This document shows, piece after piece, positions 1 through 36,251 of a DNA stretch of 64,000 nt; the first letter of the stretch is position 1, and each line of letters begins with the position of its first letter. This stretch comes from a virus. The position numbers and the translations under genes are program-made. The notes under the pieces were generated by a model. It searched no databases. It worked only from the letters and a program-made list of their open reading frames with translations, and had not been told where the DNA came from. The stretch is from IMG/VR virus record IMGVR_UViG_3300042892_004016, positions 1 to 64,000 of that record; one strand, written 5' to 3'.

Positions 1-903
1 TATAGCTATGGGGGTGGTGGGGGTGGGGGCGGGCTTAGCTACGGAACAATCTCTCTTACACCAGGAGGCAGTGTCACCATTTGGGTGGGTGAACTTGGTG
101 CCATGGGGGGATCCTTTGGTGGTGCCGGCAACAATGGGGGTAACTCTTGGATCATACAGTCTGGAGTTGAAAAGTTATGGGCATACGGTGGAGGTGGGGG
201 AGGGGGAGGAAGCGTTACCAAAGATACTGGGGTTACCGGCGGCGGTAGTTGTTTGGGTGGTGCCGGCGGTACAGGCAAGAACATCGGTAGTGCCGTTGTT
301 AACAACGGCGGGGATGGTGGTAGCTGCTTTGCCATCGCATTGCCACCCACATCCTCACTCGCTAGTAATCCTTATAGCGACTGGAGGGCAGGTGCTGGCG
401 CAGGTGGTGGCTCCGGAGGATATACTGATGCTGGTGGATCAGGAGGTGGTGGTGGTAGTATAGCTTACTATAAAACCCCTGAATTAACTTACGCAGATTT
501 AGTAGGCTACCCCGTTGATCCCACTGGTTCAACCAGTGGTGGTGGGGGTGGGGGGTGGCATTATCGTGCCGCTAGTGGTAGATACGGGGGTGGTACCACT
601 ACGTATGGCGATGGTAGAGGATACAGTTACGCTGGGTCACCTGGCAGCAACGGAAATCCACAGGCTTATGGACCACCTCCGCCACCGTCCTCTAATACTC
701 CGTACAGAGATATTGCCGCTTCCAGCGGCATATCCAATGGTAATGGTGGTGGTGTTTATGCTGCAGGTGCAGGTAGTGGTGGTGGGATACTATTATATAT
801 TGGTACTCCAGGCGCTGTTAGGATAGTTTGGGGAACCATGGAGGGAGTTGTGAATCCAGTGGTTAGATCATATCCAAATACTAATGTGAGTACCAATTAT
901 TAA
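1..903 (+). CDS. Glycine-rich virion/tail-fibre-like protein, 5'-truncated by the window edge
   Basis: The frame is open from base 1 (YSYGGGGGGGGLSYG...). It has repeated GGGGG tracts and a C-terminal GAVRIVWG..RSYP motif typical of phage Gly-rich tail proteins. Confidence 0.65.
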   Translation, partial: YSYGGGGGGGGLSYGTISLTPGGSVTIWVGELGAMGGSFGGAGNNGGNSWIIQSGVEKLWAYGGGGGGGGSVTKDTGVTGGGSCLGGAGGTGKNIGSAVVNNGGDGGSCFAIALPPTSSLASNPYSDWRAGAGAGGGSGGYTDAGGSGGGGGSIAYYKTPELTYADLVGYPVDPTGSTSGGGGGGWHYRAASGRYGGGTTTYGDGRGYSYAGSPGSNGNPQAYGPPPPPSSNTPYRDIAASSGISNGNGGGVYAAGAGSGGGILLYIGTPGAVRIVWGTMEGVVNPVVRSYPNTNVSTNY

Positions 904-1154: not shown

Positions 1155-1202
1155 GATAATGGTACAGTTGTTATAGTTATTTATTATACATCAACTGTAA
1201 AT

Positions 1203-1230
1203 AAAAAATCCACCCTCAGGTGGATTTTTG
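1203..1230. terminator. Rho-independent terminator, probably bidirectional, downstream of pqqA
   Basis: AAAAAATCCACC-CTCA-GGTGGATTTTT inverted repeat flanked by A/T runs. Confidence 0.75.
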
Positions 1231-1245
1231 TTAATCTAAATCGTA

Positions 1246-1320
1246 TTAACGATTGGCGATGTACATTGTGATTTCAAAACCAAAACGTAGATCAGTTGCT
1301 TGTGGTGTAGTCCAGTTCAT
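1246..1320 (-). CDS. pqqA: Pyrroloquinoline quinone precursor peptide PqqA (24 aa, MNWTTPQATDLRFGFEITMYIANR)
   Basis: Manual translation; too short for the ORF track. It has the W-x-x-P...DLRFGFE-x-x-x-Y signature including the E-x3-Y pair cross-linked into PQQ. It has an AAGGA RBS, an upstream TAAATA (1361-1366) and a downstream terminator. Confidence 0.92.
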   Translation of the reverse strand: MNWTTPQATDLRFGFEITMYIANR

Positions 1321-1447
1321 TTTAATTTCCTTTAAGTTAAGTTTTTAAATACTTCATTAGTATTTAACGTAAGTATACAGCTATTTTGGATAGAAGTACA
1401 TAGAGAAAATCATGATTTTGCACTACGCAAACCAGCTGGTTCAGAAA

Positions 1448-2854
1448 TTAGAAACTTAGCTGACCGCGCAACATGACAACTTTTTCACCGTTGACACGAC
1501 TGCCTACTACACCCACAGGAGCACCAAATTTAGTGTCTACATAGTTTAACATGACTCTAACATTGTCATTTACAAACCATGTTAGTCCATACGTAAGTGA
1601 CGTTGCACGATTGGTTTTGCCTGCTGCTACTGCAATATCGCTGGCATCAAATTCACTGGCTCGTACACCCACTTGCCATGCACCAGGTCCGCCTTTACCA
1701 ACTGCGGCATTTGGCTTGATCCAGTCAAACGCACCATTTTTGTACACATGCGATTCACCAGTCAAGTTATATATGGCCTGCACATAATTGCCTTTGATTT
1801 CTTGATTGGACCCAACTGCTGGATCATACTTGAAATTAAATTGTTCGCCTTGTATTTTTAATCCTTTCCAAGCCACTGCTGCTTCAATGCCCTGACGAGT
1901 GCGATCAGTGTCTCCACTTAACGCTGATCCAGTAAAGAACGCTGAACTTGCACGACCTTCTGTACGACCACTTGCAGGAACAACACCTGATTTAACTGTG
2001 CCAGTACTATAAGCGGCACCTAGGTGCGCTATTACGTCTTTGTTCTGCACGAGTTCCGCAAAGTTTACTGTAACACGACCAATGATGTCGTTGCTGTCAA
2101 CAGTGGCACTTTTATTACCACGTCCACGACTGGCAGCTACCGCCCAGGTCAGTCCCGCACGTGGGACACCATGTACCATAAAGCCAGTTTCTTTGGCAGG
2201 AATAAACTCGCCTTCAGATTGACCAATTAAACTGCGTTCCATGAAGTCAATGTTGTTACTACTGGTAAGTTGTTCTAAACTAAATGGCATTTTGAATTGA
2301 CCCATGGTAAACTGCAGTTGCGGTTCAGCAGCGTAGTTTACCCAGAACTCGTCGATGGTTGATGTTGTACTAGAAGCACCTACATCATTGCCAAAGTTTG
2401 CCAGTAACAAAAATTTCCAATCCTTTTGAAATTGTCCACGTACACCAAAGCGGGCGCGGCGATTTTCAATACCATTTTGATACGGATCAGTACTTTGTCC
2501 CACTGAGTAGTCTGGACTGTATGCACGATAGTCTGTGTGTAATCGGCCGGTCAATTGAATTGTATTTGCACCATCTTTGCTTTTAAATCCTAAACCGTTT
2601 TCCAACACAGATCCGTCGTTGGCTTTGGCAATACGATAATTATTACTGTCTCTGACATCTTTATCAATACGGCTATTATTGAACTGTTTGTTCTCCAAAG
2701 TTTCTTGGTAAGTTGTGACTCTGGCATCATGCTCTTGTTTGGTGATTACGCCTTTTTGTAGCAGTAAATCCAATAAGTCAGTGTGATCATCTGCCGCAGC
2801 AGTTTGTGACAAGCCAATCATGCCAGCCAGTACTACAATTGTTGCTAATTTCAT
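1448..2854 (-). CDS. Phosphate-selective outer-membrane porin, OprO/OprP family
   Basis: Signal peptide; GRLHTDY, RRARFGVRG and GQFKMPFSLEQLTSSNNIDFMERS motifs; C-terminal Phe; overlaps the pstS stop codon. Confidence 0.85.
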   Translation of the reverse strand: MKLATIVVLAGMIGLSQTAAADDHTDLLDLLLQKGVITKQEHDARVTTYQETLENKQFNNSRIDKDVRDSNNYRIAKANDGSVLENGLGFKSKDGANTIQLTGRLHTDYRAYSPDYSVGQSTDPYQNGIENRRARFGVRGQFQKDWKFLLLANFGNDVGASSTTSTIDEFWVNYAAEPQLQFTMGQFKMPFSLEQLTSSNNIDFMERSLIGQSEGEFIPAKETGFMVHGVPRAGLTWAVAASRGRGNKSATVDSNDIIGRVTVNFAELVQNKDVIAHLGAAYSTGTVKSGVVPASGRTEGRASSAFFTGSALSGDTDRTRQGIEAAVAWKGLKIQGEQFNFKYDPAVGSNQEIKGNYVQAIYNLTGESHVYKNGAFDWIKPNAAVGKGGPGAWQVGVRASEFDASDIAVAAGKTNRATSLTYGLTWFVNDNVRVMLNYVDTKFGAPVGVVGSRVNGEKVVMLRGQLSF

Positions 2855-3864
2855 TTAATTTCTCCAATGTTAAATTTTGTCCACTCAACACGAACCTTGT
2901 CCTGCACACTTTTAGGAAGTGGCACGTAGTCAAGTTCGGTTGCCATTGCGCTGCCGTTGTTGAACGACCAGCTAAAGAATTTCAATACTGCTCTGCCTAC
3001 TAGAGGATCTTGTTGCTTCTTGTGCATTATTATAAACGATGCACCCGTGATTGGCCAAGCGTTTTGGTGTTTCTGGTCTGTTAATACGGTGGCCATACCA
3101 TTAGTGCCAGTCCATTCTGCACCATCTGCTGCTGCCTTGAATGTTTCGTCATCGGGTAACACCCATTTGCCTGCTTGATTCTTCAACTGAGCAGGAGATA
3201 GTTTGTTCTTCTTGGCATAGGCATACTCTACATAGCCAATTGATCCCTTAGCTTGCATGACCATGGCTGCTACACCTTCATTGCCCTTGCCACCAATACC
3301 TGCTGGCCACTTGACTGCTGTACCATCGCCCACTTTTGTTTTCCAATCTGGCACTGTCTTGCTTAACCAATTGGTAAACAAGAATGTAGTACCTGATCCA
3401 TCGCTGCGATGCACTACCGTGATTGCCTGTGCTGGAAGTTTTGCATCTGGGTTCAATGCTACAATTGCTGCATCGTTCCACTTAGTGATCTTACCCAAGT
3501 AGATATTGGCAATGACCTCTGCGGTAAATTTCAGTTGTCCAGGAACAATACCTTCTACATTGACCACTGGCACTACACCTCCAATGATTGCTGGAAACTG
3601 TACTAGGTCTTCTTTCTCTAGGTCTTCCATTTTTAATGGCATATCACTGGCGCCAAAGTCCACTGTTTTGGCCTTGATCTGTTTGATGCCGCCGCCTGAA
3701 CCAATTGATTGATAGTTGAGTCCGATGCCTGTTGCTGCTTTGTATGCTTCGGCCCATTTTGAATAGATAGGATAAGGAAATGTTGCTCCTGCTCCTGTTA
3801 AATCTGCTGCTACTGCTTGGCCCACTAGTAATGCTGATAACGCCAATATTTTTACTAATTTCAT
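2851..3864 (-). CDS. pstS: Phosphate ABC transporter substrate-binding protein PstS
   Basis: Signal peptide; GAGATFPYP, YQSIGSGGG, DFGASD, HRSDGSGTT, GKGNEGVA and IGYVEYAYA motifs. Confidence 0.96.
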   Translation of the reverse strand: MKLVKILALSALLVGQAVAADLTGAGATFPYPIYSKWAEAYKAATGIGLNYQSIGSGGGIKQIKAKTVDFGASDMPLKMEDLEKEDLVQFPAIIGGVVPVVNVEGIVPGQLKFTAEVIANIYLGKITKWNDAAIVALNPDAKLPAQAITVVHRSDGSGTTFLFTNWLSKTVPDWKTKVGDGTAVKWPAGIGGKGNEGVAAMVMQAKGSIGYVEYAYAKKNKLSPAQLKNQAGKWVLPDDETFKAAADGAEWTGTNGMATVLTDQKHQNAWPITGASFIIMHKKQQDPLVGRAVLKFFSWSFNNGSAMATELDYVPLPKSVQDKVRVEWTKFNIGEIK

Positions 3865-20530: not shown

Positions 20531-22471
20531 TTATTTTGTGCCGGTTTGCAAGAATATTGCAGGGATGCTGTCGCTGATCTGCAGTGGATCGCCCGAAACG
20601 GGGTTGTATGTTTCACTGTTCCAAGTTCTGTCGTAGTAGAAATTGAACAGAGTATTGGTTGGGCTTATCGCATACACAGTGTCATATGTGGCATGCAGCG
20701 GCAAGACCCCAGTTCCGCCGATTCCTCTGGTCAGGCCGCTGATAGAATTATCCTGATAATTTACCTGCTTGTAGCGTATTTTTTCACCATTTATATTTAC
20801 TATGTCACCCAGTCTTAGAGTCACTACGATACTATCGCCCTCAGCCACATTGCTGTTCAGTATCAGCTGGGGTTTTGCATTTTCTGTAGTTAATACAAAA
20901 TCAGTACCGGCCAGCTCGGTGATTGAAGTGATATTGTATACCGTAACTTGCTTGATTGATTGTATGTCGTATTTGAGCAGTACATACAACGTGGTTCCAC
21001 TTGACAACACTGTTAGAGTATCTTCTACAATATCAACTACGTTTCCTATATTGTTTACATACATTGTGTCGTCTAACAACTGCAGTGGTTGCTCTAACCA
21101 AGTTTTAGTATTAGTATTGGCTCTGTAGATAACTTGCTCGCCGTTATTGTCAACCTCATTCACATATACCAGTTGATTTGGGGTGGCGGCTGACACCTGA
21201 CTGGTGACCGTTACTACATCTCCAACATTAATAGGGGCGATTATGTTCAAATAGTTATTGGCATTCAACCTTAGCTGGTCGCTGCTAACTACTTTGCCAC
21301 CCACTGCACTGTTGGACACAGTAACATGAAGTCTAGTGACATCAGTTAATGTCAGATCGGGTTGATTAATTTGATGAGTGTTGCTGGTTTCCCAAATGAA
21401 TCCACCTGAGGTGTAGGGAGTCACTAATGCGCTACGAACTATTTTGGTAATTCCGGCGTTGAGATATAACGATACCACGTAGTAAGTTGTTCCATCTTCA
21501 ACAATTGATATTTCATTTCGTATGAAGTATGAATTATTATTTAATTGTATGGATCCAAGTATACCATCTAGCGAAACTTCATCTCCGTCAGTGAACCCCA
21601 ATGATTCTAGAGTGTAGATCCAAACACTTACTTTCTCGGTGTTTATGAAATAGATGGGAACTACTCGCATGTCAGTGCGTTGTTCGGTTAACAGATATTG
21701 CTGAGCAGTATCGTTAAATGTTGTTATACTAACTAGATCATCTTCGGTTAGACTCGTTGCAACAGATAGCGTACTGGTCAACGTATCTATTGTGTAATCT
21801 CCTGCTAGGCCATTCAACCTGTATCCATTAGCCTCTACAATAGCGTTAGTTGCATTCGTGGCATCTATATAATTAGTTAATGTAAAATCTGCGGTTATTC
21901 CATCGTACACAAACACCTGTGATTCTGGTATGCTGTAATTGATATTTTCAGTCGAACTACCAAAAACTACAAAACTCAAATAATCCACAGTGGTATCGTA
22001 TACTCTAGTAAACAACAGTTTGGTAGTACCTGTGCCAGTAGATGCCAGATAATAGTCTGTGTTAAACACCAGCTTGATCCCATTATGATATACCGCTGGA
22101 TCAGCAGCCGTATCAGAATTGAATGCGTATCCCAGATGTATCTCACTATTACCAGTTACTGGATCTACTCGCAGTGCCATGTCATGAGAATTTGATCTGA
22201 CCAGTTGATTGCCGTTGCCAAATTCATAAACATCAAGATGAATTTCTTCGTCCGTGGTTAATTCTGTACCAACTAATTCAATAGTCTTGTCTACCCAATT
22301 CACAGTATACATTGTTGGGTTAGCTGCGCTAGTGTCCACTATGTCACCCAACTCAGAATCTAAATTCTGTTGGTATATTCTCTTACCAAATCCAGTTAGT
22401 GTGTCCATTATGAACACCGCCAACTGTGCTGGACTTTCAGTAACACTACTGAAATCTATTACATTACCCAT
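20531..22471 (-). CDS. Virion structural protein, probably the C-terminal part of the giant baseplate protein
   Basis: Beta-rich; the NGEKIRY...ISGLTRG..GT motif resembles a motif inside the upstream 4595-aa ORF; 8-nt overlap. Confidence 0.65.
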   Translation of the reverse strand: MGNVIDFSSVTESPAQLAVFIMDTLTGFGKRIYQQNLDSELGDIVDTSAANPTMYTVNWVDKTIELVGTELTTDEEIHLDVYEFGNGNQLVRSNSHDMALRVDPVTGNSEIHLGYAFNSDTAADPAVYHNGIKLVFNTDYYLASTGTGTTKLLFTRVYDTTVDYLSFVVFGSSTENINYSIPESQVFVYDGITADFTLTNYIDATNATNAIVEANGYRLNGLAGDYTIDTLTSTLSVATSLTEDDLVSITTFNDTAQQYLLTEQRTDMRVVPIYFINTEKVSVWIYTLESLGFTDGDEVSLDGILGSIQLNNNSYFIRNEISIVEDGTTYYVVSLYLNAGITKIVRSALVTPYTSGGFIWETSNTHQINQPDLTLTDVTRLHVTVSNSAVGGKVVSSDQLRLNANNYLNIIAPINVGDVVTVTSQVSAATPNQLVYVNEVDNNGEQVIYRANTNTKTWLEQPLQLLDDTMYVNNIGNVVDIVEDTLTVLSSGTTLYVLLKYDIQSIKQVTVYNITSITELAGTDFVLTTENAKPQLILNSNVAEGDSIVVTLRLGDIVNINGEKIRYKQVNYQDNSISGLTRGIGGTGVLPLHATYDTVYAISPTNTLFNFYYDRTWNSETYNPVSGDPLQISDSIPAIFLQTGTK

Positions 22472-25400
22472 TATTTGCAGCCTTCCATTTTAATCTCTTT
22501 ACTGTGTATCCAGTGTGCTGGTATGTTTCAGCATCCCAAGTAGCACCGGGTCTAGTAGTTATTCTAATTGAGAGGGTGTCAGTAATAACTCCCGGTACCA
22601 ATTCTTCTGGTCCGTAGCCTGACATGAATGCATCGCCCTTGATCTCATAGAAAGTTGTTTCGTCGGCCACTGTTAATGCGCTTACCCAAACAATACCATC
22701 ATAACTGCTTAATATTGTAGTATTGGCACCTGCTGCAATGAATCTCTCACCAGTATGTGAGATAGTGTGTAGTGTTTCCGTCGTACCGGAAATCATGGCA
22801 TCAAATGTAACGCCATCATAACTTACTAATATGACACCATTTTCACCCACTATGACGAATGCATTTTCTGCATATACTCCGGATAATAATTTTCCAGTTA
22901 TAGGGGCAGCGTTCAGTACACAAGTTTCATAATTGTATCCATTGGTTGTACTCAACAGAGTACCTGCATCCCCTGCTACAATTATCATATTGGTTGATGC
23001 TACTACCGCATTTAGTCCGTGAGCAGTAACTGCGGGTGTTAACTCTGACCAGTTTTTGCCGTCGTTGCTGGTAACGATGGTACCAACTTGTGTGGTAGTG
23101 GTTGATACTGCGCCACTGGCTGACACATTGGTGATTCCTGTACCCACTGCAATATAACCCTCAAAGAAATCACATGACAGGAATTTAACAGCATTCAATC
23201 TAGTAGAAGCTGCACCGATAAAATCATATGCTCTGTTCCAACCATATCCATCACGACTGGATATGATTTCATCACCAACTGCAACATAAAGACCATCATG
23301 TGACATGATGCTGTATAGTTTATCTAACGGTGCCGACAGTGATGTACTATCCCACTTAGTTCCCACGTCATCAAATGGCAATGAATCCCATGGAGTAAAT
23401 TCTCCTACAGTGGTCCAAACAAAACTGTCATAGCTTATGTATATAGGTGTATTGACATTGGTAGTGGATAGCATATAGATTTGACCATCGTATGTCATAT
23501 CAGTTAGTCCCAATACTTGTGCGCCAATTCTAGTTACTTGCCAAGTGCTGCCCTGGTCATAACTGTGCATGACCATTGAGAATGCTGGTCCATCAGCCGC
23601 AGCCACATACTTGTTGCCGTCATATATAACTGATACAATCTTTACTCCCTTGGGATAGAAAGATTGATCTTTTAATATGGTGTCAAGAGTCAATGCGCCA
23701 GTAAAATTATTGCCATAGTACGTGTTGTTGGGGTAATCTATTCCCGAAACTAGCAATGGCAGATTCTTACCCAACATGTCATCAGTTGGCTCATAGTAGC
23801 CCATGATTCTGTCTAGTGCATTTAGAGTAGGATCATCACTCTGTACCTGTACCCACTTGTCAAAGTTAAAGGTAGAATCGTTATTACTTTCAACACAGTT
23901 ATATAACCGTTTATTGAACGTGACCAGTGAACTGGCACTACGTGTATATCCACTGGTAATGATAACTGGCTCAGGCAAGTAAATGTTATCTGATGCAGTA
24001 TATGGGAACGGATTAGTAGTCACTCGCCATTCGCCACCAATAAAGGTTGGACTTGCAGTTGTATTCTTTACTGCTATGTAATAAGTTGCGCCATTCTTTA
24101 CAATAGTATCTTTAGTATAAGCAGTGTCGGCTGTCCAAAGATTGGGAACTGTTACGGGGTTAACCATTGCTGCATCATAGTATACTACCAATTGAGTATC
24201 AGTAATTGGCTTAACATAATATTGCTTGAATGTATCAGCCGCTATTCCATATAACTCATATATTAGAATACCATTTGTTATGGTAGTGTGAATTACTTTA
24301 ATTGTTGCATCATTTGTGCCATCAACTCCACCAAGTAGTGATCCCTTGACTGTGATGATATCTCCAGCTGCAAATGCAGTTCCCAAATTAGCAGTGTCCA
24401 GTTCAATAAAGTATTGATTCTTTATTGTACTGGTATTGAATTTAGGTGCAGAAAACTTAATAACTGCGGGATCAGCCAGTCCAGTGTATCCATCTGGTAA
24501 CAGACTTAGTGTAATAGCAGCAGGTGTTTCATAGAAATATACATTCATGCCTTTAAGTTGACCTGGCATTAATGGACTAGCTGCATAATCTGTGGTAACA
24601 GTCACTTGCTTGCCCAACGCACTAGATACTGCAACTACTGGTAGTACTTCACCTTGTAAGCTGGCACTCATTGTAGTAACTGCGCTGTCGTATAGCTTTG
24701 TTGCTGAGCTTGATTCATTACCACTGGCAGTAAAGTCACTATAGTAATATTCTCCTGCAGTCCACACAGTAACCTTGCTGTTATAACTGGTTCTGTCAAA
24801 CTTCAGTGTGGTTTTTAACTGTCTGGTTGGGGTATTAGTTGCCACTGCTACTGCTCTGGCAGTTACCGCTAGTAAATTACCAGCGCTTGCTCCTGCATCA
24901 GTGAACACGATGCGATGATTATCAGTTAATGCATTTTTCTTAGAAGTATACAGTGCAATAGTGGAAGTTAACCCAAATAGCTCATCAGTGAATACGACAC
25001 CAACATAGTAATGTTGTTGGTCTTCAATACCCATTACTGTATCGCCTATACCAGACTTATACTTAACTACATCGCCTGTTTTTAATGTGGCCGATGTGAG
25101 AGATATCGTATTCAACGAGAAATTAATAGCATCACTGTCAAATGAGACCGTGAATACTGGTTCTATAATTATTTCAGGAGTAACTGCGTAGCCATTGCCA
25201 GCATCCAGTATTTTTACACCCACTAATTTATCGCCAGACATAATAGCACTGACTCTGGCTGGCGTATTGGGAGCAGGATACATGTTAGTGTCAATATACA
25301 CTGTTATTTCCGGAGGATCAACGTAATCTCTACCTGAGTCTAGTACAACAACTCCTGGCATGTCTGTATAAACCAATGCATGTGGATTGTGCGCGGTGAT

Positions 25401-28400
25401 CTCGGTGTTATTTACTCCGCGAGTAATAGTAGATAGTATACCAGCATCTCTGTCAACGCTAGCATAGCTAATCTGCTCATCGTCAATAGTTATTATACCA
25501 GTTAGAGGAATACCGTGAGCGTTATCAATATGAATTGTGTTTGCAGCAGTAGAAACGTATTTGACCACTGCGCCAACATTCACTCTGCTTAGCCCAGTAA
25601 GTGATAGTCCGTAATTTGCTAACCAATCGGTATATGCGGTGTCTTGCCATACAGTGTCAGTAGGTCCAAACTGACCCACTCCCACTGGGTTCTTAAAGTT
25701 TAAGTTGGGTGTGACAAATCTACCTAAATCTGCGTCATATTTTGCAGGCAAGTCAAAGTCACTTATGGCATGCGTGAATGTGTCACTGGCAGTGTATCTG
25801 ATAGCAAACTCTTTAATCACCACGTGGTATGGTTTAACTTCATTGAGGTAACCCTCTAAGAAGTTAATATTATCCTGCTGATATGTTTGGCTTTGTACCA
25901 AGTCACGCAGAGTATGCGATACATCTACTAACGATGTTTTATTCAGCCATGGCAAGTTATTTTGGGTGGCAGTGGCTTCACTGGTAATGTATTCAAACAG
26001 CAGTATTAAACTCTTGTTGCGATGAATCTGTAAATCGTTAACATAGATTTCTTCATTGAGTGCTCGTAAGATATATCTGGTTTCAATGGAAGGGTAGGTA
26101 TCAAACTCTATAGTATCGTAGAAGTTATTACCAAATCCTATATTGTTAGCATCATATTCCCATAGCGAACTCTTAATCTGAATAGTACCCTGTTCTAATC
26201 CCACTCTAGTCCATGCAGTGCCACTGTAAACATAAACTTCGCGTTTGCCATCGCTGTTGGCAGTTACCCCGGCAACAAGACCTTCAGTGGCCACTAGTGT
26301 GGCTAATCCAAAATATCTTGATACTTCTACATCTATCTTGGTGTTGTTATTGTAGCCATCTGCCCACCAGTAGATATATTCCCAGTAATCACTGGTGTTA
26401 AATGTAGGGCCACTGGTAGTCAAGAATGCAGGGGCGCGAGCTGGAGCACCCTGTTTATTGGAGCTGCCCAAAAACGCGGGAGTCTTGTACTCTGCAATAG
26501 GGTACTGCAGTAATACTGCATTGGCGTACAGGCAATAGTTTTCCAAGGCTTTAAATCGGTTGATAAAGAAGCTTTGCGTTGGTCTAACTGAGATACCAGT
26601 TTGCACCATCTTGGGCAAGCTGATATTTGGTACCACTTTTCCTTGTATGTCCACACCTGATAAGCTGTCTAGTAGTTTTTCATATAGTGCTTCAGGATCA
26701 CTGTAGTCAGTGTAGGCTGATGGAACTCCAGCTAAGAAATCTTCTGCATAGCCATTGCGTATTAGTTTAAATTCATTATATGATGAATCTTGGTTTACAC
26801 CCTCACCAAATCCAATATGCAGACTGGTGTTGGTTGACTTGATATACTGTCTGCTATTATAAAGTGCATAGATGTTTGGCTTTACAGCAGCAAAATAAGG
26901 TATACCAGAGTTCTGCGGGTTAGTGATATAAGCAGTTATCACAGTATCAGTGAGTGTCTTACCCTGCTGGTTGTATAACACATTGGTATTTCTAACCCAA
27001 TAGTAGTACTTGCTAATCAACGCACCAGTGCTATCTAATTCAAAGGTGGTGGTATATGCTTCTAAGTTATATGCAGTTCCTGATCCAACATAATCCATGG
27101 GAACAACATCACTTTCTATCCAGGTGTATACTGTGACTGTACTACCAGGGAACAGTGTGCCCCAATATTTACTGTCGTATACTGTATCGGCTTGATGGTA
27201 ATCAACAAATCTAGTGGTCGTGGTGTCGAACCATATTTTACCCACAAAGTTGCTTGCCCATACTATGCGATTGGCGGTAGTGTCAGTATTGTATCCTGCA
27301 GGATCATATGAGCCCATGTAGTCGATATTTTCTCTGACCACACCCAACAATTTACCTTGCAGTGGATCTATATAATCCAATGCGGCTGTTCTGCTGTTAC
27401 TAATGTTGTCATATAACTGAACTGATTGTATCTGAGATACATCCACAGTGGCAGATTCTTTGCGTGTAATTTGCCAATTTGGTTTATTGGTATTATTTAT
27501 AAATATTACCACGCGTCCCGTGCCCACTGAGTTTACATACGCTGGACATCCTACTACTAGTGAATATTCAGTGAACGCTAGTGTTTTACCGTAATACGAT
27601 GTTTGCGCGCCTGCAGTTGCCAATTCAGTAGCTGATTGTCCGAATACGTATTTGCCAACGGTTTGCATGCTCTCGTTATAAGCAGGAAGATAATCGTATA
27701 TGAATACACTTCCTGCATTTACTGCAGTGTCTACAAATCTGGTAAAGTTACCATCGAATATCGTATCGTTTGTGTAATCTTCGTCATCAGTAAAATCAAA
27801 TGTGGTGGCTGTTTTTCTGGCTATAACTGGGGCGCCCACTGCAAATGAGTTATGTTCGTTGAACTTCACTGAGTACCCATATTGAGTTGGTCCAGTCAAT
27901 TGTTCAGCGTTGATCAATACCTGAGTGTTAACGTACTCCGAAATACCCAATGCCTGTGCCGTTGCTAGCTCAAGTACAGTAATATTTAATTTGTTATTTA
28001 CCGGACCCAATTGCGTGTTTACCAATTGTATTACCAGTTTAGCGTCAGTAGTACTATATGCTTTTACATTGGGAATGCTGGCTTGATTAATGGCTGTTAC
28101 TATATTGGTTATTCCGGTTCCTGGCAGTCTTACTGTATAACCGTTAATCAATATCGTGGCATCAGTTGACAGTGATACTGCACTGGCACCAGTTATCATT
28201 CCATACTTCTTCCCTTGATTGGTAAAGCGGTACACACTGCCTTCTATGTTGTCAGTTGATAAATCGTACGGTGCTCCTACTATTAATTCAGTACTTGGGG
28301 TGTTAGTATCTAGCGAATGACCAAATGCAACCCCTGATCTGATTTGATCCACCGATACAAAGCTGTTTAATGTCTGCGTATGGACGAAATCAACACAGCT

Positions 28401-31400
28401 TATATCAACTATATCACCTGGTGTTACTGCAGTAGTAAGTGTGACAATTTTAGTAAGTGCATTAATGGAGTAGTCGCTGGCTGATGACAACAGAATGCCA
28501 TTCAACTTAACTTGAATCTGGTTATAAGAATTTGGTGCTGTACTCAGAGCCAATGCAAGTACTGTGGTGGTTTGAGCACTGGCGGGCTGTCTTATTTCAT
28601 ATGTTTGTGTTATTCTAGTAAAAACATAGACTGATCCGGTGTTGACCAGCTGAGCTGAGTAATTTTGAGCCGGAGCACCAACGAACACCTTAGTGCCATC
28701 ATAATTGGTTGACACACTGTTACCAAACTGATCCACACCAGTTAATCCTGAGACACTAAGGGTATCAACAGATACGTAATCGTGTACTGCTTTGTATATA
28801 TCAGTATCTGCTGTAATCACAGTATCAAATGACTGCGCAACGTAATATGTAGTTCCAGCGTAGGGATCATATTCTGCTCTGACAAATTCGTATGTATCTG
28901 TTCCAGTTACATTGTCAAATGTTATTAAATCTCCCTTAATAAATTCTGAAGGGTAGGCGTCTAATATAACAAAACTGTTGTCACCCACTATAGTGTCTGC
29001 AGATGTGGAGAATCCAATATCCACATAGGTAAATGCAGTACTAAGTTTGTATACTTCTACTTGAGCGTCATCAGTTGATGCAGAATATAGCCAATTCTTG
29101 TCACCTGATAACGACAGTGATACGCCTTGAGATTTATCTGTAATTACAATAGTTTGTTGCAGTCTAATTGAATTAGCTTCAGCATTGACTAACTTAAACA
29201 CATAAAGTTTACTATTGATGTCTACCTTAGATACAACCAAAGTATCATCAATTAATACCATTGATCCCACTAGACTTGGGTCAATCACAGTAGTTTCTTG
29301 TAATGAGAATTCTACTCTGTTTGCACTAAACGTGTATCGGTATATTTTTCCTGCAATGGAATCCAACACAAAATAACCCAGGATGTGATGATACGCTACG
29401 CCATTACCAAATGAAATTGCGCTGGTTGGGGTTGCAATCTCTGATGCGGCATAGTTTATACTCTTTTGATACACTGCCCAACCACCATCAGTATCCTGAT
29501 CTACCCAAACTTTAGATTTAGTTAATCCGTTATTGAGCAATGGCATGTCTGCTATGTCTCTGGGACTAGCAACTCTCTGTGGGTTAAAGTATGCAGCTAT
29601 ACCAGTTCCTGATATGCTCATCACGCTAGAATCCATTACCAAATCAACCACCACTGACGTTAAATTGGATATAGCATTCACTCTGTAGTAACCATTAACT
29701 CGGTCGTCGTAATTAATAACCATGAATAGGTCGTTTACTGCCAGGCCTGGCGCTTCTTCAAATACCAATGTGGCAGTATCGTTCAAATTGTTCAAGCAGT
29801 TGACTACTCTGATAGGAGCCGCAGTGGATGATAGAGATACTGGAGCATATACTTTCCATGTGCTATTTTCATCTGCCACCCAAACATAATTGCCCTGATA
29901 CAACTCACTAATAGCAACTGTGCTGTTCTTCAGTGTGTCAAATGAATAAGCATACATCTTAACATCATCAAAATGCACTGATCCTGCTGTGGGTAATACA
30001 CTGCTGGCTGCTGGATCCAACACTGACAGTATATTTTCATCAGCTATTGATCTGCCGTAGTTGGTTACTGCATTTAATGACAACTGTTGCATTACCGCAC
30101 TGTCAGTAGTGTCCTTGAATATACCAACTGTACTGGGATTACCAGTCAAGTATTTTTCATTCAGTACAACTTCTATGAAGTTCTCGTTGTTGACTCCACC
30201 GAACTCGCTGGTCTTGATTGCCCAATTTTCATATACTTCATATTTGATTTGGCCAGTAGTTAATGTTATGTTCTGTACCGCATTGGCAACTCTGCTGGTT
30301 CCTTTTTCAGCAATGAAGTTTTTATACACATTGACCTGCGATATATCGTCCAAGTTGCTTGCTGCCAGATAATCTCTGGGTCTGTAACCAATCAACGAGA
30401 ACGCCAATTGGTCTGCATCATTGGATAAGTTAGCAGCATTGGTATCATAGTACAATGATGATTCGTATGCACGATTGCTTGCATTGGGCAGCAGACCTTT
30501 TTGGATCTGATCGTATGATGTTTTAGTCCACACGTTTGTATCAAACTTGGCTGCGGGCAGTATTAAACTGTTGGCAGTGTAGTAGCTGTTCTTATACTTT
30601 ACCATGCTATTCTTACTATAGCGAGTGTTGGCTGCCCAGTCTTTGACATTATCCTGATTTAGAATAAAGCCCTGCGCATCCAGTGTTCCGTTCCAATCAA
30701 CGGTCTTGCTACCTTTAAGCAGCATTCTGTATTGACGTAGGCTGGTAACGGGATTGAAGATAGTGTCATTAAATAAGGTAAAGTTGTCAAACACTACTGC
30801 ATGTTCTAAGTTACTCAAATTGGCATTGAAGTAGGCCAGTGTATCACCTGAGTTAAGAGGGAACACCACAAACTCAGTGTCATTTCTTTCCACTGCCAAA
30901 TCTTTAGTTTGAATTGGTATTAAATCCTGGTTAAGCACATAGTTTTGGTGGTGCAGAGTTAATGGCTGAACTATGCTGCTGTCTTTGTTTACTGTTATTT
31001 TAGTAGCGGCTGGATTCAAGTTCACCAAGCTGCCCACTTGCCATCCAGTTTGCGCCCATGATAAGAATTCAATAGTCATTTGTTTCCAATTGACTTCCAT
31101 GCCATTTTCAATTACATCAAACTGCATGCCCTGATCTGTCAGATATGCGCCATAACTCAACAGGAACTCACATACTCCGTTAACGGAATAATATTCGTTA
31201 CCGTAGGGAACAACAGTCTCGGTGGTATAGTAGGAGCTGGCCACTGATATTGATATATTATCAATAGCCAGTGTTTGGTATAAGCCATTATACTTGGGAG
31301 TGTATGTGGTAAAGTACGCCTTGTTCTGTGAGTTACCGTATACGCGGTATCCCTTGATAGTCTTTTGCACAATGACGCCACTGAATACAATTCGGTCAAA

Positions 31401-34400
31401 TGGCTGGTTCTCATGCAATAATACTGAATAACTATTATCAGGTACCATCAGTGAGCTGTTCTTGCTGGACCCAGAGCTTTTCTCCAGATAAAAGTTCATC
31501 AATTGTTTATCACTGAATCCTGCCAAGCGATATATCAATCTCACATCCAAATTGGACATGAGTTCGTTTAATTTTTCTTGCCCAGTGCCACCAGTGCTTT
31601 GTACATAATCAACTATCCAGTTAACATAACTGTGTTGTGCTGTGCCTGTGCCGTATTTTACAGTGGCATTGCTTGATATACGTGATCGGTCGTTATACAA
31701 GTATTGACCAAACTCTGAGTTATATTGATACAAGTCCAAGTCATACGACAAAGAGAAGAATTTTGCAGGTTTTGTTAATGCAAACAACTTGATTAAGTCA
31801 AAGGGATAGCTGCTGCTTTTAGTGTAGCTGTATTCTGATGGACTCACATCGTTTGTGGTCCAGTCTCGGTTAAAGGTGGTAGCATCGTAGTATCTGGTTA
31901 ATGCAGCCAATGGATCACGTAAATTACCGGACTCGTCAACTGGCAGAATCTTTCGTAGGTCTGGTCTAGTTCTGGTTGGGATGACATATGGACTGCCGTC
32001 GTTGTAATTGATGCCTGCAGTAATATCGTCCCATAACAAATCGTTGCCGCTAGTATAGGGCGCTACTCCATATCTACCTTCCCACCAAGTGGGTTTTGCG
32101 GTTAGTCCCAGCATTTCCCATGGGGTAGTATGTGGGCTGGTGGTATCATAGAACCACTGATACATGCCTCTCCAATTGCCGGCATTGAACAGCTTGTTGT
32201 CCAAATTGTTTCTGGATTGGTTATAGTTATATGTAAACTTGTTGTTTGACATATAGTACTGAGTTTTGTAGTCAATGCGATTCTGGCCAACCCAGTTTAA
32301 GAAATTGGTGTTTTGTATGACCCGCACTTCGTCATATGAATGCGCCGTGGTTCTAAACTGTCCTGGCACAACATCATCGTATGTAACTGGAGTTTGTGCG
32401 CTGCATTTGAGATTGTTGTATATGCGTTTTTCAAATTCCAACAGAACTTTATCTCTGAAGTCTACCAGTTTTCCTTCGTTATACTCACCGTACAGCTTAG
32501 TCAAAGAACCATCGTGTCCTTTGATAAAATATGTGGGAGTAATATATGATTCATCGTATACTATTTCAGGAATGAATGATGGGTACAGACCCAACTTAGT
32601 TGGAGTATTGGGAACGTATCCACCATAGGTCTGATTGAACTCATTGATGACAATTACATCACCTGGCATCATATCCAGAGTCATGGTGACTTTTGGCTCA
32701 ATATCACTTATAATGTAATCTTGATCTTTAACCAGTTGAGTTGTGATTGATTCTGCGTTAACAATTCTGGTCAGATATATTATAACGCCGTCATAATTGG
32801 CGTTGGCAAAGTCATAGGTTTTTATCAGTGAATAGAAACTGGTATCAATGAAAGCATTAAATGTGTAAGTATTTGATACGTAAGGAGCTCTAGCCGGTAG
32901 CATGTCACTCCAAAAGAATGGAGTACTCTGATATTTGTAACCAGCTATTTGCTGCAGTGCATCGTCTAGCATGTAGGCTGCACTCTGATATCTATTATAG
33001 TCACCGGTATCTATTATGTTCATCAACAATGTTTTGAACTTGACATACTCATTGCTGCTATAAGATAGTGCATCAATTAAACTATAATCCTTATTGCGTA
33101 ACAGTGCAGCTGGAATAGTCAGTGGTGCGCTACTTTGTATTATCTTATCACCATATGATACCAGATTGCCCAAATCTCTATAGTCATTTGCACCGTATAT
33201 CGTACCGGTGATACGGTTAGAGTTTATGCAGATACTCTGGTAATGTCCCTTGATGTCACCTAAATTTAACGAGGTGATTACTGAATTGAATGGGTTACTT
33301 TCTAAGTTGGCAGGAATCGTGTAATAAGCATCTGCGCTTAATTTATCATCGCTGTATACCAATACCTGAATAGATGCGCCAACCTCTGGGGTCTCATACA
33401 ATGTTATCGTAGTATCTAATCCAGTGCTGGTAACTAGATAGTTATAACTGGGCTGTGTCTCAGCATTTATATATACTCTAATCACAGGCCATTTAGTAGT
33501 GTCTGCATCTTTTGCTGTTACATTACACGTGAATGATTCAAACCCCGTGGTGGACTCAAAATTAAAGGCCTGGTACTGAAAACTTTCATCAACTGCAGTT
33601 TTCCAACCCAGTTCACGGGTATATTCATTACGATTGATATAATTATATGGATATCCGGTGTTTACAGATTCGGTAATGGAACTGTAATTGTCAACATATT
33701 GGAAGGTGTCATCGTTGATTGAAATTCTAAAATTGATGTCGCTGGTGTTACCTACTGAACTATACTTGATTGGGAAACCCAATACTGCATCATCGGCGCC
33801 GGCTCCCAGCGCAAACTCAAACAAAGTAGATCCGGTAAAATTACTACCTGGATAGAATTCTTGGTCTGCAAAGCTGATTCCATTTTTGTCAAACACATCA
33901 AATTTGGGTGGTTGATTTACATAATTCTTCTGTTGCCCCTGTTGCCAGTTACTACCATCAAAGTAATAGGTTAATCCTTTACGCTCAGTTCCATTGGACA
34001 CTGTCACTTGATCATTGGCAATTACATCACCGTCTAGTGCTTTACTCAATGTGATCACCGGTGAGGAAGTGAACGTGAGCGGAGTGCCGTCAAGTATTGC
34101 TTCATCTGCGCTGCCTGTTACTGATAGGGTAGTATCGTCAATGACTGCTATTACTTGCTGTCCACTAGTAAATCCGGCTCCTGTGATACGCATGCCTTCT
34201 AGAATATCAGTGGTATCATCTACTTTTAGGGTAGTGGACGAGCCGCCGGCTGCCACATAAGATTTCTTTACCCCAAGAGATTCAGCAAAATTTGCCACCC
34301 ATACTTTATTCCTAATGTTAATATCAGTGTCTGCTGTAAAAATTATTCTGGCACCCTCAAACAAAGGAATACTGGACCCATCTGGATAGTATATGGTTCG

Positions 34401-36251
34401 GCCGGCAACTCTATCTGATGAGTAAAATCCGGATATGTTGATGCTGGTATTATCTACGAAATCAACTGAGCCAATACCAACAGTACCCTGATTAATCAGT
34501 TTGAGGTCGGGATAAAATTCAACGATTGGTCTATTGGCACGGTTATCTTTGTTATTGAGAGCGGCTAATGCGATTTCTCCAGAAACATATGAGGCTGTGG
34601 CCTTTAATACATCAATATGAAACCAACGATTGCCTCGGCTCCATGCATTTCTGTTAATAGCATTCCTACTAATAGTGATATAATCTTTATTAATTGGCAT
34701 GTCAATTTGCCCACTAAACTTATCAACATCAAATTTATTGTTGTCGTAGATAGTGTAGATTGAATCAGCAAAGGGCTCGTATACACTGAGTTCTTCTGAT
34801 AAAATCAAATTGATACTTGTACCAACACCTTCAACGTAGTAGCTGCCAGTATTATAATGTTTGGGAAACACATTTTCACTAAACGTTACTTTAAGTCCAT
34901 TAGTGAATGTTACACCATTGGGGCTGGTATATATAAGTTGTCCTAAAATATCCTGTTGCACATTGATAAAATCATCTGCCTTTTTATCTAAAATACGAAT
35001 GGTTCCATACATCAGTGGATTCAAACTATCCTGATAGTACAAAGTATTCAATGCTGCAGTTTTTGGTGGCAGCATACGAACCAGTCCGTATTGGTTCTTG
35101 ACAAAGTTCTTGTTGATAAATGAGGTACCATTGGTGGCAGTTATTAACTGGTCTGTTGGAATGGGCGCATATTCAGTTAAAGTTACTATAGGAAAGCCCA
35201 ACGCATCGTCAATCAAATTTATTTGGTAGAAATAGTCACTTAGTTTTGTGATTGGTGACAAATCAAAGTCGGCATCGCCAAAATCGGCAATATCAAACAA
35301 TGAATTTATTGTGCCGGTCGCATTGGCATCAAACCCGTAGAACATTATGATTTTGCCATCTAATACGTCATTCAATGGTCCGCCAATTCCATCAATACTG
35401 CCAGTAAACGGTCCTGATAACGTCAAGTCATTTAATCTTTTGCCGTGTATTTCATTAAACGGTATGGTACAAATTAAATCTACTTTGTTATCGCCAGTAT
35501 AGGTATCAGATTCTTGAGCACCACTTAAAGGTACAGTAAAGGTCACTGTGCCGATATCAGCACCGTTGTTTACTACACCATAAACATCACGTGAGCTGAC
35601 ATTGTTTCGGTACGTGTCTATGCCCGAGAGTCCAACGTTGGTTTGTATGAAAAACTTGCTACCTTGAGCTACCTGAAAAGTATAAGTACCACCTCTGACA
35701 ACTGTGATTGTAGGATTTACTTCCGCAATAGATACATTGTTCTTACTAAAGGCGTATGAGGTAAATTGAGTAGTAACAGTGTAATCTGCAACAGTGTCTA
35801 TGTAGTCAGTAGTTACTGGAACTGGGTCTGGTCCATTGGTCAGCCAATAGTATTGACTGAAGTTGGTTATCTTGTCTAGATCAACAAAGCTATCCCATGA
35901 ATAAAACTCATTTGAAAACAAGTTAGAATGGTTGTTAGTTGGTGAACCTTCTGTGGTCAGCGCATCAACCAATCCCGGGTAGGTTATAAAGTCTTTAGCA
36001 ACACTAGTGTCCTTGTTAGTGAATACTACTCCAGGTTCTAGCTGATAGTCAGTTCTGATCTTGCTGGGTTCAGTTACATAACTGGAGTTTGGATTGATTC
36101 CATATTCAAATCTGCGACCAATATAACCCTGAATTCGTTGGGAATTGGGTTGTTGAACTAATTGATCTAGCGTTGCTTTTAAAAACTGCTGATTGGATTT
36201 AGTCTGAAATATCTCAGGAAGAAAATTCAAGGTTCTAACTTGTGTTACCAT
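22464..36251 (-). CDS. Giant baseplate wedge/virion structural protein (4595 aa, gp7-like position)
   Basis: Follows the gp6-like gene; RTLNFLPEIFQT start, YLNEVKPYHV motif, FG-GAP-like and BNR-like propeller repeats. Confidence 0.75.
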   Translation of the reverse strand: MVTQVRTLNFLPEIFQTKSNQQFLKATLDQLVQQPNSQRIQGYIGRRFEYGINPNSSYVTEPSKIRTDYQLEPGVVFTNKDTSVAKDFITYPGLVDALTTEGSPTNNHSNLFSNEFYSWDSFVDLDKITNFSQYYWLTNGPDPVPVTTDYIDTVADYTVTTQFTSYAFSKNNVSIAEVNPTITVVRGGTYTFQVAQGSKFFIQTNVGLSGIDTYRNNVSSRDVYGVVNNGADIGTVTFTVPLSGAQESDTYTGDNKVDLICTIPFNEIHGKRLNDLTLSGPFTGSIDGIGGPLNDVLDGKIIMFYGFDANATGTINSLFDIADFGDADFDLSPITKLSDYFYQINLIDDALGFPIVTLTEYAPIPTDQLITATNGTSFINKNFVKNQYGLVRMLPPKTAALNTLYYQDSLNPLMYGTIRILDKKADDFINVQQDILGQLIYTSPNGVTFTNGLKVTFSENVFPKHYNTGSYYVEGVGTSINLILSEELSVYEPFADSIYTIYDNNKFDVDKFSGQIDMPINKDYITISRNAINRNAWSRGNRWFHIDVLKATASYVSGEIALAALNNKDNRANRPIVEFYPDLKLINQGTVGIGSVDFVDNTSINISGFYSSDRVAGRTIYYPDGSSIPLFEGARIIFTADTDINIRNKVWVANFAESLGVKKSYVAAGGSSTTLKVDDTTDILEGMRITGAGFTSGQQVIAVIDDTTLSVTGSADEAILDGTPLTFTSSPVITLSKALDGDVIANDQVTVSNGTERKGLTYYFDGSNWQQGQQKNYVNQPPKFDVFDKNGISFADQEFYPGSNFTGSTLFEFALGAGADDAVLGFPIKYSSVGNTSDINFRISINDDTFQYVDNYSSITESVNTGYPYNYINRNEYTRELGWKTAVDESFQYQAFNFESTTGFESFTCNVTAKDADTTKWPVIRVYINAETQPSYNYLVTSTGLDTTITLYETPEVGASIQVLVYSDDKLSADAYYTIPANLESNPFNSVITSLNLGDIKGHYQSICINSNRITGTIYGANDYRDLGNLVSYGDKIIQSSAPLTIPAALLRNKDYSLIDALSYSSNEYVKFKTLLMNIIDTGDYNRYQSAAYMLDDALQQIAGYKYQSTPFFWSDMLPARAPYVSNTYTFNAFIDTSFYSLIKTYDFANANYDGVIIYLTRIVNAESITTQLVKDQDYIISDIEPKVTMTLDMMPGDVIVINEFNQTYGGYVPNTPTKLGLYPSFIPEIVYDESYITPTYFIKGHDGSLTKLYGEYNEGKLVDFRDKVLLEFEKRIYNNLKCSAQTPVTYDDVVPGQFRTTAHSYDEVRVIQNTNFLNWVGQNRIDYKTQYYMSNNKFTYNYNQSRNNLDNKLFNAGNWRGMYQWFYDTTSPHTTPWEMLGLTAKPTWWEGRYGVAPYTSGNDLLWDDITAGINYNDGSPYVIPTRTRPDLRKILPVDESGNLRDPLAALTRYYDATTFNRDWTTNDVSPSEYSYTKSSSYPFDLIKLFALTKPAKFFSLSYDLDLYQYNSEFGQYLYNDRSRISSNATVKYGTGTAQHSYVNWIVDYVQSTGGTGQEKLNELMSNLDVRLIYRLAGFSDKQLMNFYLEKSSGSSKNSSLMVPDNSYSVLLHENQPFDRIVFSGVIVQKTIKGYRVYGNSQNKAYFTTYTPKYNGLYQTLAIDNISISVASSYYTTETVVPYGNEYYSVNGVCEFLLSYGAYLTDQGMQFDVIENGMEVNWKQMTIEFLSWAQTGWQVGSLVNLNPAATKITVNKDSSIVQPLTLHHQNYVLNQDLIPIQTKDLAVERNDTEFVVFPLNSGDTLAYFNANLSNLEHAVVFDNFTLFNDTIFNPVTSLRQYRMLLKGSKTVDWNGTLDAQGFILNQDNVKDWAANTRYSKNSMVKYKNSYYTANSLILPAAKFDTNVWTKTSYDQIQKGLLPNASNRAYESSLYYDTNAANLSNDADQLAFSLIGYRPRDYLAASNLDDISQVNVYKNFIAEKGTSRVANAVQNITLTTGQIKYEVYENWAIKTSEFGGVNNENFIEVVLNEKYLTGNPSTVGIFKDTTDSAVMQQLSLNAVTNYGRSIADENILSVLDPAASSVLPTAGSVHFDDVKMYAYSFDTLKNSTVAISELYQGNYVWVADENSTWKVYAPVSLSSTAAPIRVVNCLNNLNDTATLVFEEAPGLAVNDLFMVINYDDRVNGYYRVNAISNLTSVVVDLVMDSSVMSISGTGIAAYFNPQRVASPRDIADMPLLNNGLTKSKVWVDQDTDGGWAVYQKSINYAASEIATPTSAISFGNGVAYHHILGYFVLDSIAGKIYRYTFSANRVEFSLQETTVIDPSLVGSMVLIDDTLVVSKVDINSKLYVFKLVNAEANSIRLQQTIVITDKSQGVSLSLSGDKNWLYSASTDDAQVEVYKLSTAFTYVDIGFSTSADTIVGDNSFVILDAYPSEFIKGDLITFDNVTGTDTYEFVRAEYDPYAGTTYYVAQSFDTVITADTDIYKAVHDYVSVDTLSVSGLTGVDQFGNSVSTNYDGTKVFVGAPAQNYSAQLVNTGSVYVFTRITQTYEIRQPASAQTTTVLALALSTAPNSYNQIQVKLNGILLSSASDYSINALTKIVTLTTAVTPGDIVDISCVDFVHTQTLNSFVSVDQIRSGVAFGHSLDTNTPSTELIVGAPYDLSTDNIEGSVYRFTNQGKKYGMITGASAVSLSTDATILINGYTVRLPGTGITNIVTAINQASIPNVKAYSTTDAKLVIQLVNTQLGPVNNKLNITVLELATAQALGISEYVNTQVLINAEQLTGPTQYGYSVKFNEHNSFAVGAPVIARKTATTFDFTDDEDYTNDTIFDGNFTRFVDTAVNAGSVFIYDYLPAYNESMQTVGKYVFGQSATELATAGAQTSYYGKTLAFTEYSLVVGCPAYVNSVGTGRVVIFINNTNKPNWQITRKESATVDVSQIQSVQLYDNISNSRTAALDYIDPLQGKLLGVVRENIDYMGSYDPAGYNTDTTANRIVWASNFVGKIWFDTTTTRFVDYHQADTVYDSKYWGTLFPGSTVTVYTWIESDVVPMDYVGSGTAYNLEAYTTTFELDSTGALISKYYYWVRNTNVLYNQQGKTLTDTVITAYITNPQNSGIPYFAAVKPNIYALYNSRQYIKSTNTSLHIGFGEGVNQDSSYNEFKLIRNGYAEDFLAGVPSAYTDYSDPEALYEKLLDSLSGVDIQGKVVPNISLPKMVQTGISVRPTQSFFINRFKALENYCLYANAVLLQYPIAEYKTPAFLGSSNKQGAPARAPAFLTTSGPTFNTSDYWEYIYWWADGYNNNTKIDVEVSRYFGLATLVATEGLVAGVTANSDGKREVYVYSGTAWTRVGLEQGTIQIKSSLWEYDANNIGFGNNFYDTIEFDTYPSIETRYILRALNEEIYVNDLQIHRNKSLILLFEYITSEATATQNNLPWLNKTSLVDVSHTLRDLVQSQTYQQDNINFLEGYLNEVKPYHVVIKEFAIRYTASDTFTHAISDFDLPAKYDADLGRFVTPNLNFKNPVGVGQFGPTDTVWQDTAYTDWLANYGLSLTGLSRVNVGAVVKYVSTAANTIHIDNAHGIPLTGIITIDDEQISYASVDRDAGILSTITRGVNNTEITAHNPHALVYTDMPGVVVLDSGRDYVDPPEITVYIDTNMYPAPNTPARVSAIMSGDKLVGVKILDAGNGYAVTPEIIIEPVFTVSFDSDAINFSLNTISLTSATLKTGDVVKYKSGIGDTVMGIEDQQHYYVGVVFTDELFGLTSTIALYTSKKNALTDNHRIVFTDAGASAGNLLAVTARAVAVATNTPTRQLKTTLKFDRTSYNSKVTVWTAGEYYYSDFTASGNESSSATKLYDSAVTTMSASLQGEVLPVVAVSSALGKQVTVTTDYAASPLMPGQLKGMNVYFYETPAAITLSLLPDGYTGLADPAVIKFSAPKFNTSTIKNQYFIELDTANLGTAFAAGDIITVKGSLLGGVDGTNDATIKVIHTTITNGILIYELYGIAADTFKQYYVKPITDTQLVVYYDAAMVNPVTVPNLWTADTAYTKDTIVKNGATYYIAVKNTTASPTFIGGEWRVTTNPFPYTASDNIYLPEPVIITSGYTRSASSLVTFNKRLYNCVESNNDSTFNFDKWVQVQSDDPTLNALDRIMGYYEPTDDMLGKNLPLLVSGIDYPNNTYYGNNFTGALTLDTILKDQSFYPKGVKIVSVIYDGNKYVAAADGPAFSMVMHSYDQGSTWQVTRIGAQVLGLTDMTYDGQIYMLSTTNVNTPIYISYDSFVWTTVGEFTPWDSLPFDDVGTKWDSTSLSAPLDKLYSIMSHDGLYVAVGDEIISSRDGYGWNRAYDFIGAASTRLNAVKFLSCDFFEGYIAVGTGITNVSASGAVSTTTTQVGTIVTSNDGKNWSELTPAVTAHGLNAVVASTNMIIVAGDAGTLLSTTNGYNYETCVLNAAPITGKLLSGVYAENAFVIVGENGVILVSYDGVTFDAMISGTTETLHTISHTGERFIAAGANTTILSSYDGIVWVSALTVADETTFYEIKGDAFMSGYGPEELVPGVITDTLSIRITTRPGATWDAETYQHTGYTVKRLKWKAANNG

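Follow-up and report, generated by a model that had tools for sequence, protein, structure and literature searches.

Why would a phage carry the gene for the precursor peptide of PQQ and none of the genes for the enzymes that act on it? PQQ is made from the glutamate and the tyrosine of the peptide PqqA by PqqD and PqqE, a protease, PqqB and PqqC, and one peptide goes into each PQQ. An unannotated pqqA of this kind had been proposed, in a first-pass annotation made from the letters alone, in a 64,000-nucleotide stretch of viral DNA (the window in what follows). The window covers the initial 64 kb of an IMG/VR virus record of 115,894 bp (CheckV completeness 28%), in which families of baseplate wedge, hub and virion proteins were recognized, with T4-like baseplate and hub genes, and whose closest cultured relatives are giant myoviruses at just 33–35% identity. 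Within the region of the tail and baseplate genes there is a single open frame of 4595 codons (22464–36251, minus strand). The beginning of the window (1–903, plus strand) is occupied by the terminal part of a protein very rich in glycine, which runs off the contig start, is convergent with the pqqA strand and is probably a fibre tip.

A genuine pqqA without its partner genes

The ORF at 1246–1320 (minus strand) has 24 codons, from an ATG to a TAA, and passes the two curated models of the family, i.e., Pfam PF08042 (40.6 bits, cut-off 21.1, E = 2.3e-10, full model spanned) and NCBIfam TIGR02107 (37.8 bits, cut-off 20), at about twice their cut-offs. When the six-frame translation of the whole record was searched with the PqqA family, a check that the first-pass annotation had advised, this was the single locus found (35.5 bits, E = 1.9e-9). 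The match is far beyond chance, and the phage does carry a true pqqA. The complete signature described at the outset is E16-I-T-M-Y20, and its Glu-x-x-x-Tyr pair, the two residues cross-linked on the way to PQQ, is kept in 17 of the 17 related phage copies. The leader motif W-x-x-P, presumably the element recognized by PqqD, is also present (W3 and P6) and is invariant across the phage copies. The exact peptide of the window has no match among the 15 billion predicted proteins of a catalogue, and the exact peptides of the phage clade, whose core ends in IANR, were not found among the catalogued cellular proteins.

The absence of pqqB-E beside the gene, noted at first for the window, extends to the whole 115.9-kb record, both by family models (no match to PqqE or PqqC) and by tblastn with two reference protein sets of PqqB-E (best E = 0.67). 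Among the relatives, PqqE was absent from the 14 records searched, which include a complete one, and PqqC from 15 records (14 relatives, one complete, and the window's own), in a search whose control in a bacterial genome was positive at 343.8 bits. The gene of the window does not stand at the head of a pqqBCDE set, i.e., it is an orphan copy, a condition already known for this family (PMC4109929). As for the enzymes that use the cofactor, methanol/ethanol-type PQQ dehydrogenases were absent from 15 records (14 relatives and the window's own), and membrane glucose dehydrogenase from the window's record and four relatives.

The gene is maintained along the phage group. We found 54 viral contigs with a porin 63–72% identical to the porin of the window. 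The family cut-off for pqqA was exceeded in 16 of 49 related (porin-bearing) records, and in 10 of the 11 that have at least 75 kb, including the sole complete genome (G040, 165 kb with terminal repeats). The pqqA phage group has a G+C content of 43%. The 17 copies found in related phage records correspond to 11 distinct DNA versions, over which the 13-residue core RFGFEITMYIANR is invariant while nine of its 13 codons vary synonymously. The mean dN was 0.056 and the mean dS 0.71 (dN/dS ca. 0.08), a substitution pattern indicating that the pqqA of this clade is under strong purifying selection.

A compact cassette

As had been claimed, pqqA has its own ribosome binding site, the Shine-Dalgarno sequence AGGA at 1328–1331 (like all the features of the cassette, on the minus strand), 7 nt before the ATG. 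All the related cassettes have AAGGAGA or AGGAGA at this position. Just upstream of it there is a leader hairpin (1345–1367) with a 9-bp A+T stem and a 5-nt loop, folding at -5.8 kcal/mol (z -2.0). A hairpin is found at the equivalent position of the related cassettes, and both arms co-vary between copies (AAATACT/AGTATTT in the window versus ACATACT/AGTATGT or ACATATG/CATATGT in the relatives). Four nt before the hairpin, the alignment suggests a putative -10 hexamer, TATACT (1372–1377); five related cassettes, whose upstream genes differ, have TATAAT, TACAAT or TAAAAT in the same column. No -35 element was found for this hexamer and a simple promoter scan made no call there. The upstream TAAATA pointed out in the first-pass annotation is indeed present (1361–1366), but as a promoter signal it does not hold, being part of the 5' arm of the leader hairpin and not conserved in the related cassettes. 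The T4 late motif TATAAATA occurs in the window about as often as expected by chance (four found versus 4.2 expected), so that TAAATA provides no evidence for a late promoter here and was rejected as such.

Behind pqqA we found the predicted intrinsic terminator (1196–1229), with a stem-loop at 1204–1229 (11-bp stem, 4-nt loop) and a U tract after it. Its folding energy is -13.5 kcal/mol (z -3.9), a stability that none of 200 shuffles reached. In most of 13 distinct related contexts a G+C-rich hairpin and a T run come directly behind pqqA. In a set of 85 distinct viral cassettes, the 55 nt behind the stop codon folded at -13.8 kcal/mol versus -6.7 for shuffles, and the 52 nt before the Shine-Dalgarno sequence at -7.1 versus -4.8. 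Six cassettes with different upstream genes could be aligned, and in all of them the order was the same, a -10-like hexamer, a hairpin, a strong Shine-Dalgarno sequence, the ORF and an intrinsic terminator.

Occurrence in other phages

A tblastn search of 50,697 GenBank phage records with the peptide gave 12 matches. Nine of them are cultured phages of Methylophilales/Methylophilaceae belonging to several unrelated lineages (P19250A, Venkman, MEP301, MEP401/402 and four Melnitz records), and one is an uncultured spring podovirus. Within these records, every cultured phage holding pqqA infects Methylophilales. In the six records that we inspected (five cultured methylophages and the spring podovirus) the ORF was intact and preceded by a Shine-Dalgarno sequence, and it was located either in an unannotated gap or beneath a gene call on the opposite strand. 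Two annotated "hypothetical proteins", Melnitz gp152 (L084:2467-2562) and L088:1946-2074, run opposite to the pqqA strand and are probably miscalls that mask the real gene. The papers describing these cultured methylophages make no mention of pqqA. The suspicion that gene callers miss the phage gene was thus well founded; the copies of cultured methylophages are mostly unannotated and the peptide of the window is absent from the protein catalogue.

The two remaining GenBank matches are filed as "Acinetobacter phage MD-2021a" (CAKLQF020000010.1, our L089, and CAKLQH020000055.1). The first looks like a bacterial chromosome, with fur, ppk and a full pqqABCDE operon. The second shares with it the name and the peptide match, and is probably an Acinetobacter chromosome contig as well. 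In P19250A the peptide agrees at every residue with the cellular PqqA of Ca. Methylopumilus and Methylotenera. Among uncultured viruses, the strict coding pattern RFGFE(I/V)TMY retrieved at least 120 IMG/VR contigs with pqqA; in 80 of the 80 loci inspected the PqqA ORF was whole and there was no pqqB-E nearby (median G+C 36%).

It could be argued that pqqA is passenger DNA, a scrap recently captured from a host and useless to the phage, as might be expected of a very small gene located among host-like genes near the end of a contig. However, the dN/dS over diverged copies contradicts this, and so do the presence of pqqA in nearly all the long related records, the conserved signals of the cassette and the independent acquisition of the gene by unrelated methylophages. 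We regard this explanation as extremely improbable. As far as can be judged from the DNA itself, the ORF is probably a functional phage copy of pqqA that would be translated in vivo.

Mobility of the cassette and the phosphate genes

The region from the terminator to the end of the upstream gene (ca. 1196–1447, minus strand) seems to behave as a self-contained movable unit of ca. 250 bp, found in varied contexts in the relatives. RNA-library contigs from two other studies, possibly derived from DNA carry-over, match the window at 900–1447 or 1260–1447 with three differences each and diverge from it exactly at 1447. One of them, a contig of 3690 nt from a lake RNA library that matches 900–1447, then joins position 2833, skipping entirely the porin gene located upstream. 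The jump from 1447 to 2833 reflects either strains lacking the porin at this spot or chimeric assemblies. Since the contigs break exactly at 1447, the cassette would have other upstream neighbors in those lake samples, and since they are near-identical below this point and different above it, the unit that moves would be the one delimited above. The neighbors found across relatives are the porin, a plcP-like gene, S-adenosylhomocysteine hydrolase, a radical SAM/SPASM enzyme, DUF932 and a cell-wall hydrolase. In one relative (G001) the S-adenosylhomocysteine hydrolase gene comes directly behind pqqA (L063:2158-3063). The summed contig depth of three metatranscriptome runs has its peak over 1242–1412; many of the contigs there fit only 1245–1287 or 1245–1293 and come from the pqqA of other organisms. 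We rejected the peak as a sign of expression of the window gene, and contig depth cannot rank genes.

In the window the upstream neighbor is an OprO/OprP-type phosphate-selective porin (1448–2854, minus strand; PF07396, E = 6e-42), preceded by the phosphate-binding protein PstS (2851–3864, minus strand; 413.8 bits with NF008171 and 404.4 bits with TIGR00975, both above cut-offs). Further upstream, on the same strand as pqqA, there are a GT4 glycosyltransferase and then a metallophosphoesterase (plcP-like). The porin belongs to a clade of more than 1000 metagenomic proteins, of which the best 120 are on phage-sized contigs. A pattern scan of bacterial genomes with the phage-porin alignment retrieved only matches of 33% and 23% identity, and with the nearest bacterial match found at 33% the porin seems to have resided in phages for long.

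This arrangement is the basis for an alternative in which pqqA would be the last gene of a phosphate-stress operon (plcP-like, GT4, pstS, porin, pqqA) and PQQ would serve a glucose dehydrogenase, with release of phosphate from minerals by the gluconic acid produced; gluconate-driven phosphate solubilisation had already been raised in the first-pass annotation. The five genes are on one strand, and the only thing found between the porin stop (1448) and pqqA is a weak A+T hairpin, with no real terminator until the strong one behind pqqA, so that in the window phage read-through from the pstS-porin genes into pqqA is probable. In addition, the porin is within ca. 11 kb of pqqA in 12 of the 16 related records holding both, and a survey of 2026 classified viral pqqA as a phosphate solubilisation gene (PMC13188868). 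However, the two genes directly adjoin in only four of these 16 records and are 23–123 kb apart in another four, and the cassette has its own -10-like element, leader hairpin and terminator regardless of its neighbors. Besides, the near-identical contigs part from the window precisely where the porin ends, phosphate genes are absent from the stretches inspected around the pqqA of the small methylophages, and the dehydrogenase required was not found in the phages searched for it (the window's own record and four relatives). The acid produced by a free-living plankton cell would, in any case, be lost by diffusion. Given that pqqA does not stay linked to pstS and the porin across the relatives, the phosphate solubilisation reading is weak and, in our view, improbable.

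The host

Between 6701 and 7086 (minus strand) the window encodes a circularly permuted two-piece tmRNA of betaproteobacterial type (RF01850, 135.9 bits, full length), with the tag ANASNDEVYALAA. Used as a DNA query, only conserved pieces of 30–38 nt were matched. Five of the bacterial genomes sampled have many copies of pqqA and are, as we take them, Methylophilaceae-like; a tmRNA of this permuted type was absent from them, and present (121 bits) in one sampled genome, G689, that has a full pqqABCDE operon. The type of tmRNA argues therefore for a betaproteobacterial link and not for the sampled genomes with multiple pqqA copies. The phage PstS found its best matches among 401 genomes of the phylum at 67–68% identity, in genomes without pqqA. 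The best match of the phage PqqA in 401 genomes of the class was 88% identical, at a locus of 68% G+C, although it is too short and conserved a match to mean much. The unpublished genomes G732, G744, G585 and G486 support none of the conclusions given here.

We have considered a host that is a non-methylotrophic betaproteobacterium using PQQ, in which the same supply of peptide would serve alcohol, aldose or other quinoprotein dehydrogenases. In its favor can be taken the tmRNA and its coexistence with the complete operon in G689, the lack of methanol dehydrogenase in the 15 phage records, and the proximity of the IANR-ending peptide to the PqqA of high-G+C loci that are not Methylophilaceae-like by this parameter. 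On the other hand, the cultured phages with pqqA all infect Methylophilales, the relatives of the window phage have SAM-cycle genes in common with the Lake Baikal viruses of methylotrophs, and the tmRNA of a phage need not match that of its host, as illustrated by Melnitz (PMC9004378). We consider such a host unlikely.

What the phage would gain

The reading that we prefer is that the phage pqqA feeds PQQ synthesis by the host, most likely for the methanol dehydrogenase of a methylotroph. The compact cassette, with its putative -10, leader hairpin, Shine-Dalgarno sequence, 24 codons and terminator, would express the phage PqqA from a stable and highly expressed mini-transcript. The peptide would be handed to PqqD and PqqE of the host for the Glu-Tyr cross-link, then to the host protease and to PqqB and PqqC, yielding one PQQ. 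Since every PQQ uses up one peptide and transcription of the host breaks down in the course of infection, a copy in the phage would keep PQQ synthesis going after host transcripts fade, so that the periplasmic PQQ-dependent dehydrogenases could continue working and provide energy and carbon for the phage. The enzyme served would most likely be the XoxF/Mxa methanol dehydrogenase, because among cultured phages pqqA is exclusive to methylophages; the SAM-cycle genes shared with the Baikal viruses also support the link to methylotrophs. As a counter-point, and unlike in the Baikal viruses, no phage gene for this enzyme was found in the 15 records searched. We give this reading, in which host processing and the beneficiary are what we infer, a probability of about 0.65.

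The idea of the first-pass annotation that only the consumable peptide is supplied is, in our opinion, the most sensible one. Peptide dosage appears to be a natural lever, since the chromosomes of Methylophilaceae keep 3–12 copies of pqqA for a single pqqBCDEFG set (Beck et al., 2014; PMC4109929).

There are two variants in which the peptide would do something else. In the first, it would not lead to PQQ at all, and would either be converted into some other compound by a radical SAM enzyme of the phage or act as a decoy that ties up PqqD/PqqE of the host. One relative (G003) does encode, 269 nt behind pqqA, a radical SAM/SPASM-type enzyme of 340 aa (L068:1838-2860), radical SAM genes are found in several relatives, and the exact peptides of the clade are missing from the cellular catalogue. 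Nevertheless, this pairing was found in one of 13 distinct contexts, the G003 enzyme gives weak matches to peptide/cofactor maturases and is not PqqE by the models, and the window's record has no radical SAM candidate. A decoy, for its part, would not need the glutamate, the tyrosine and the whole core exactly as in cellular PqqA. Both forms of this proposal are highly improbable. In the second variant, the PqqA of the clade, with its IANR core, would be adapted to the phage, either read together with the phosphate genes or used in some relatives as substrate of the radical SAM/SPASM enzyme, and its product or timing would differ from PQQ synthesis by the host. The absence of its exact peptides from the cellular catalogue leaves room for such a specialized, non-host-like role, although we hold it to be very doubtful. 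If true, it could mean, for example, that the supply of PQQ is linked to phosphate stress, or that something other than PQQ is made from PqqA.

Under the preferred reading, i.e., supply to the host pathway, the logic of the locus is simple. Of all the components of PQQ synthesis only PqqA is consumed, and therefore a gene of 75 nt would be the cheapest way for a virus to sustain this cofactor pathway of the host. It is also common, as it occurs in every cultured methylophage lineage found here, in the uncultured contigs retrieved and in most of the long relatives of the window phage. Phage pqqA is almost never annotated, and surveys of viral helper genes therefore undercount it; the extent to which viruses affect the turnover of methanol in lakes and coastal seas may have been underestimated. 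For the window itself, the practical value is a correct annotation, together with a caution against scoring pqqA as phosphate solubilisation.

Comparison with known systems

The novelty suggested at first for a pqqA in a phage does not stand, as viral PqqA was published in 2020 and listed in 2026, in a reservoir study, among viral P-cycling/phosphate-solubilising genes (PMC7678222; PMC13188868). T4-like viruses of Lake Baikal assigned to Methylophilaceae carry PqqA alongside methanol dehydrogenase and SAM-cycle genes, and a boost of host PQQ was proposed for them (Coutinho et al., 2020; PMC7678222). The window phage resembles the Baikal population VP_266 (PMC7678222) in being a freshwater T4-like phage with the gene of the precursor peptide only, and SAM-cycle genes are found in both virus groups. 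However, the Baikal viruses have methanol dehydrogenase and 35% G+C, whereas in the group of the window phage the enzyme was not found in 15 records and the G+C is 43%. The location of pqqA behind pstS and a phosphate porin in the window record is another difference.

The cultured methylophages (P19250A, Venkman, MEP301, MEP401/402 and Melnitz) are alike in having an orphan pqqA of 23–24 codons with a Shine-Dalgarno sequence and no pqqB-E. Their core is EMRFGFEVTMYVMNK-like, and identical to that of the host in P19250A, while the window clade has the core D(L/M)RFGFEITMYIANR, without an exact cellular match in the catalogue. Among cellular systems, the canonical pqqABCDE(F) operons, such as those of Acinetobacter and G689, share with the window gene the family, the length, the W-x-x-P leader and the E-x3-Y core, but the operon position is missing in the window. 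The dispersed pqqA copies of Methylophilaceae also stand alone and follow the same gene-dosage logic for the substrate, although they are cellular and not viral (PMC4109929). The pqqA of the window is thus an example of an already known kind of phage helper gene, and its novelty is modest.
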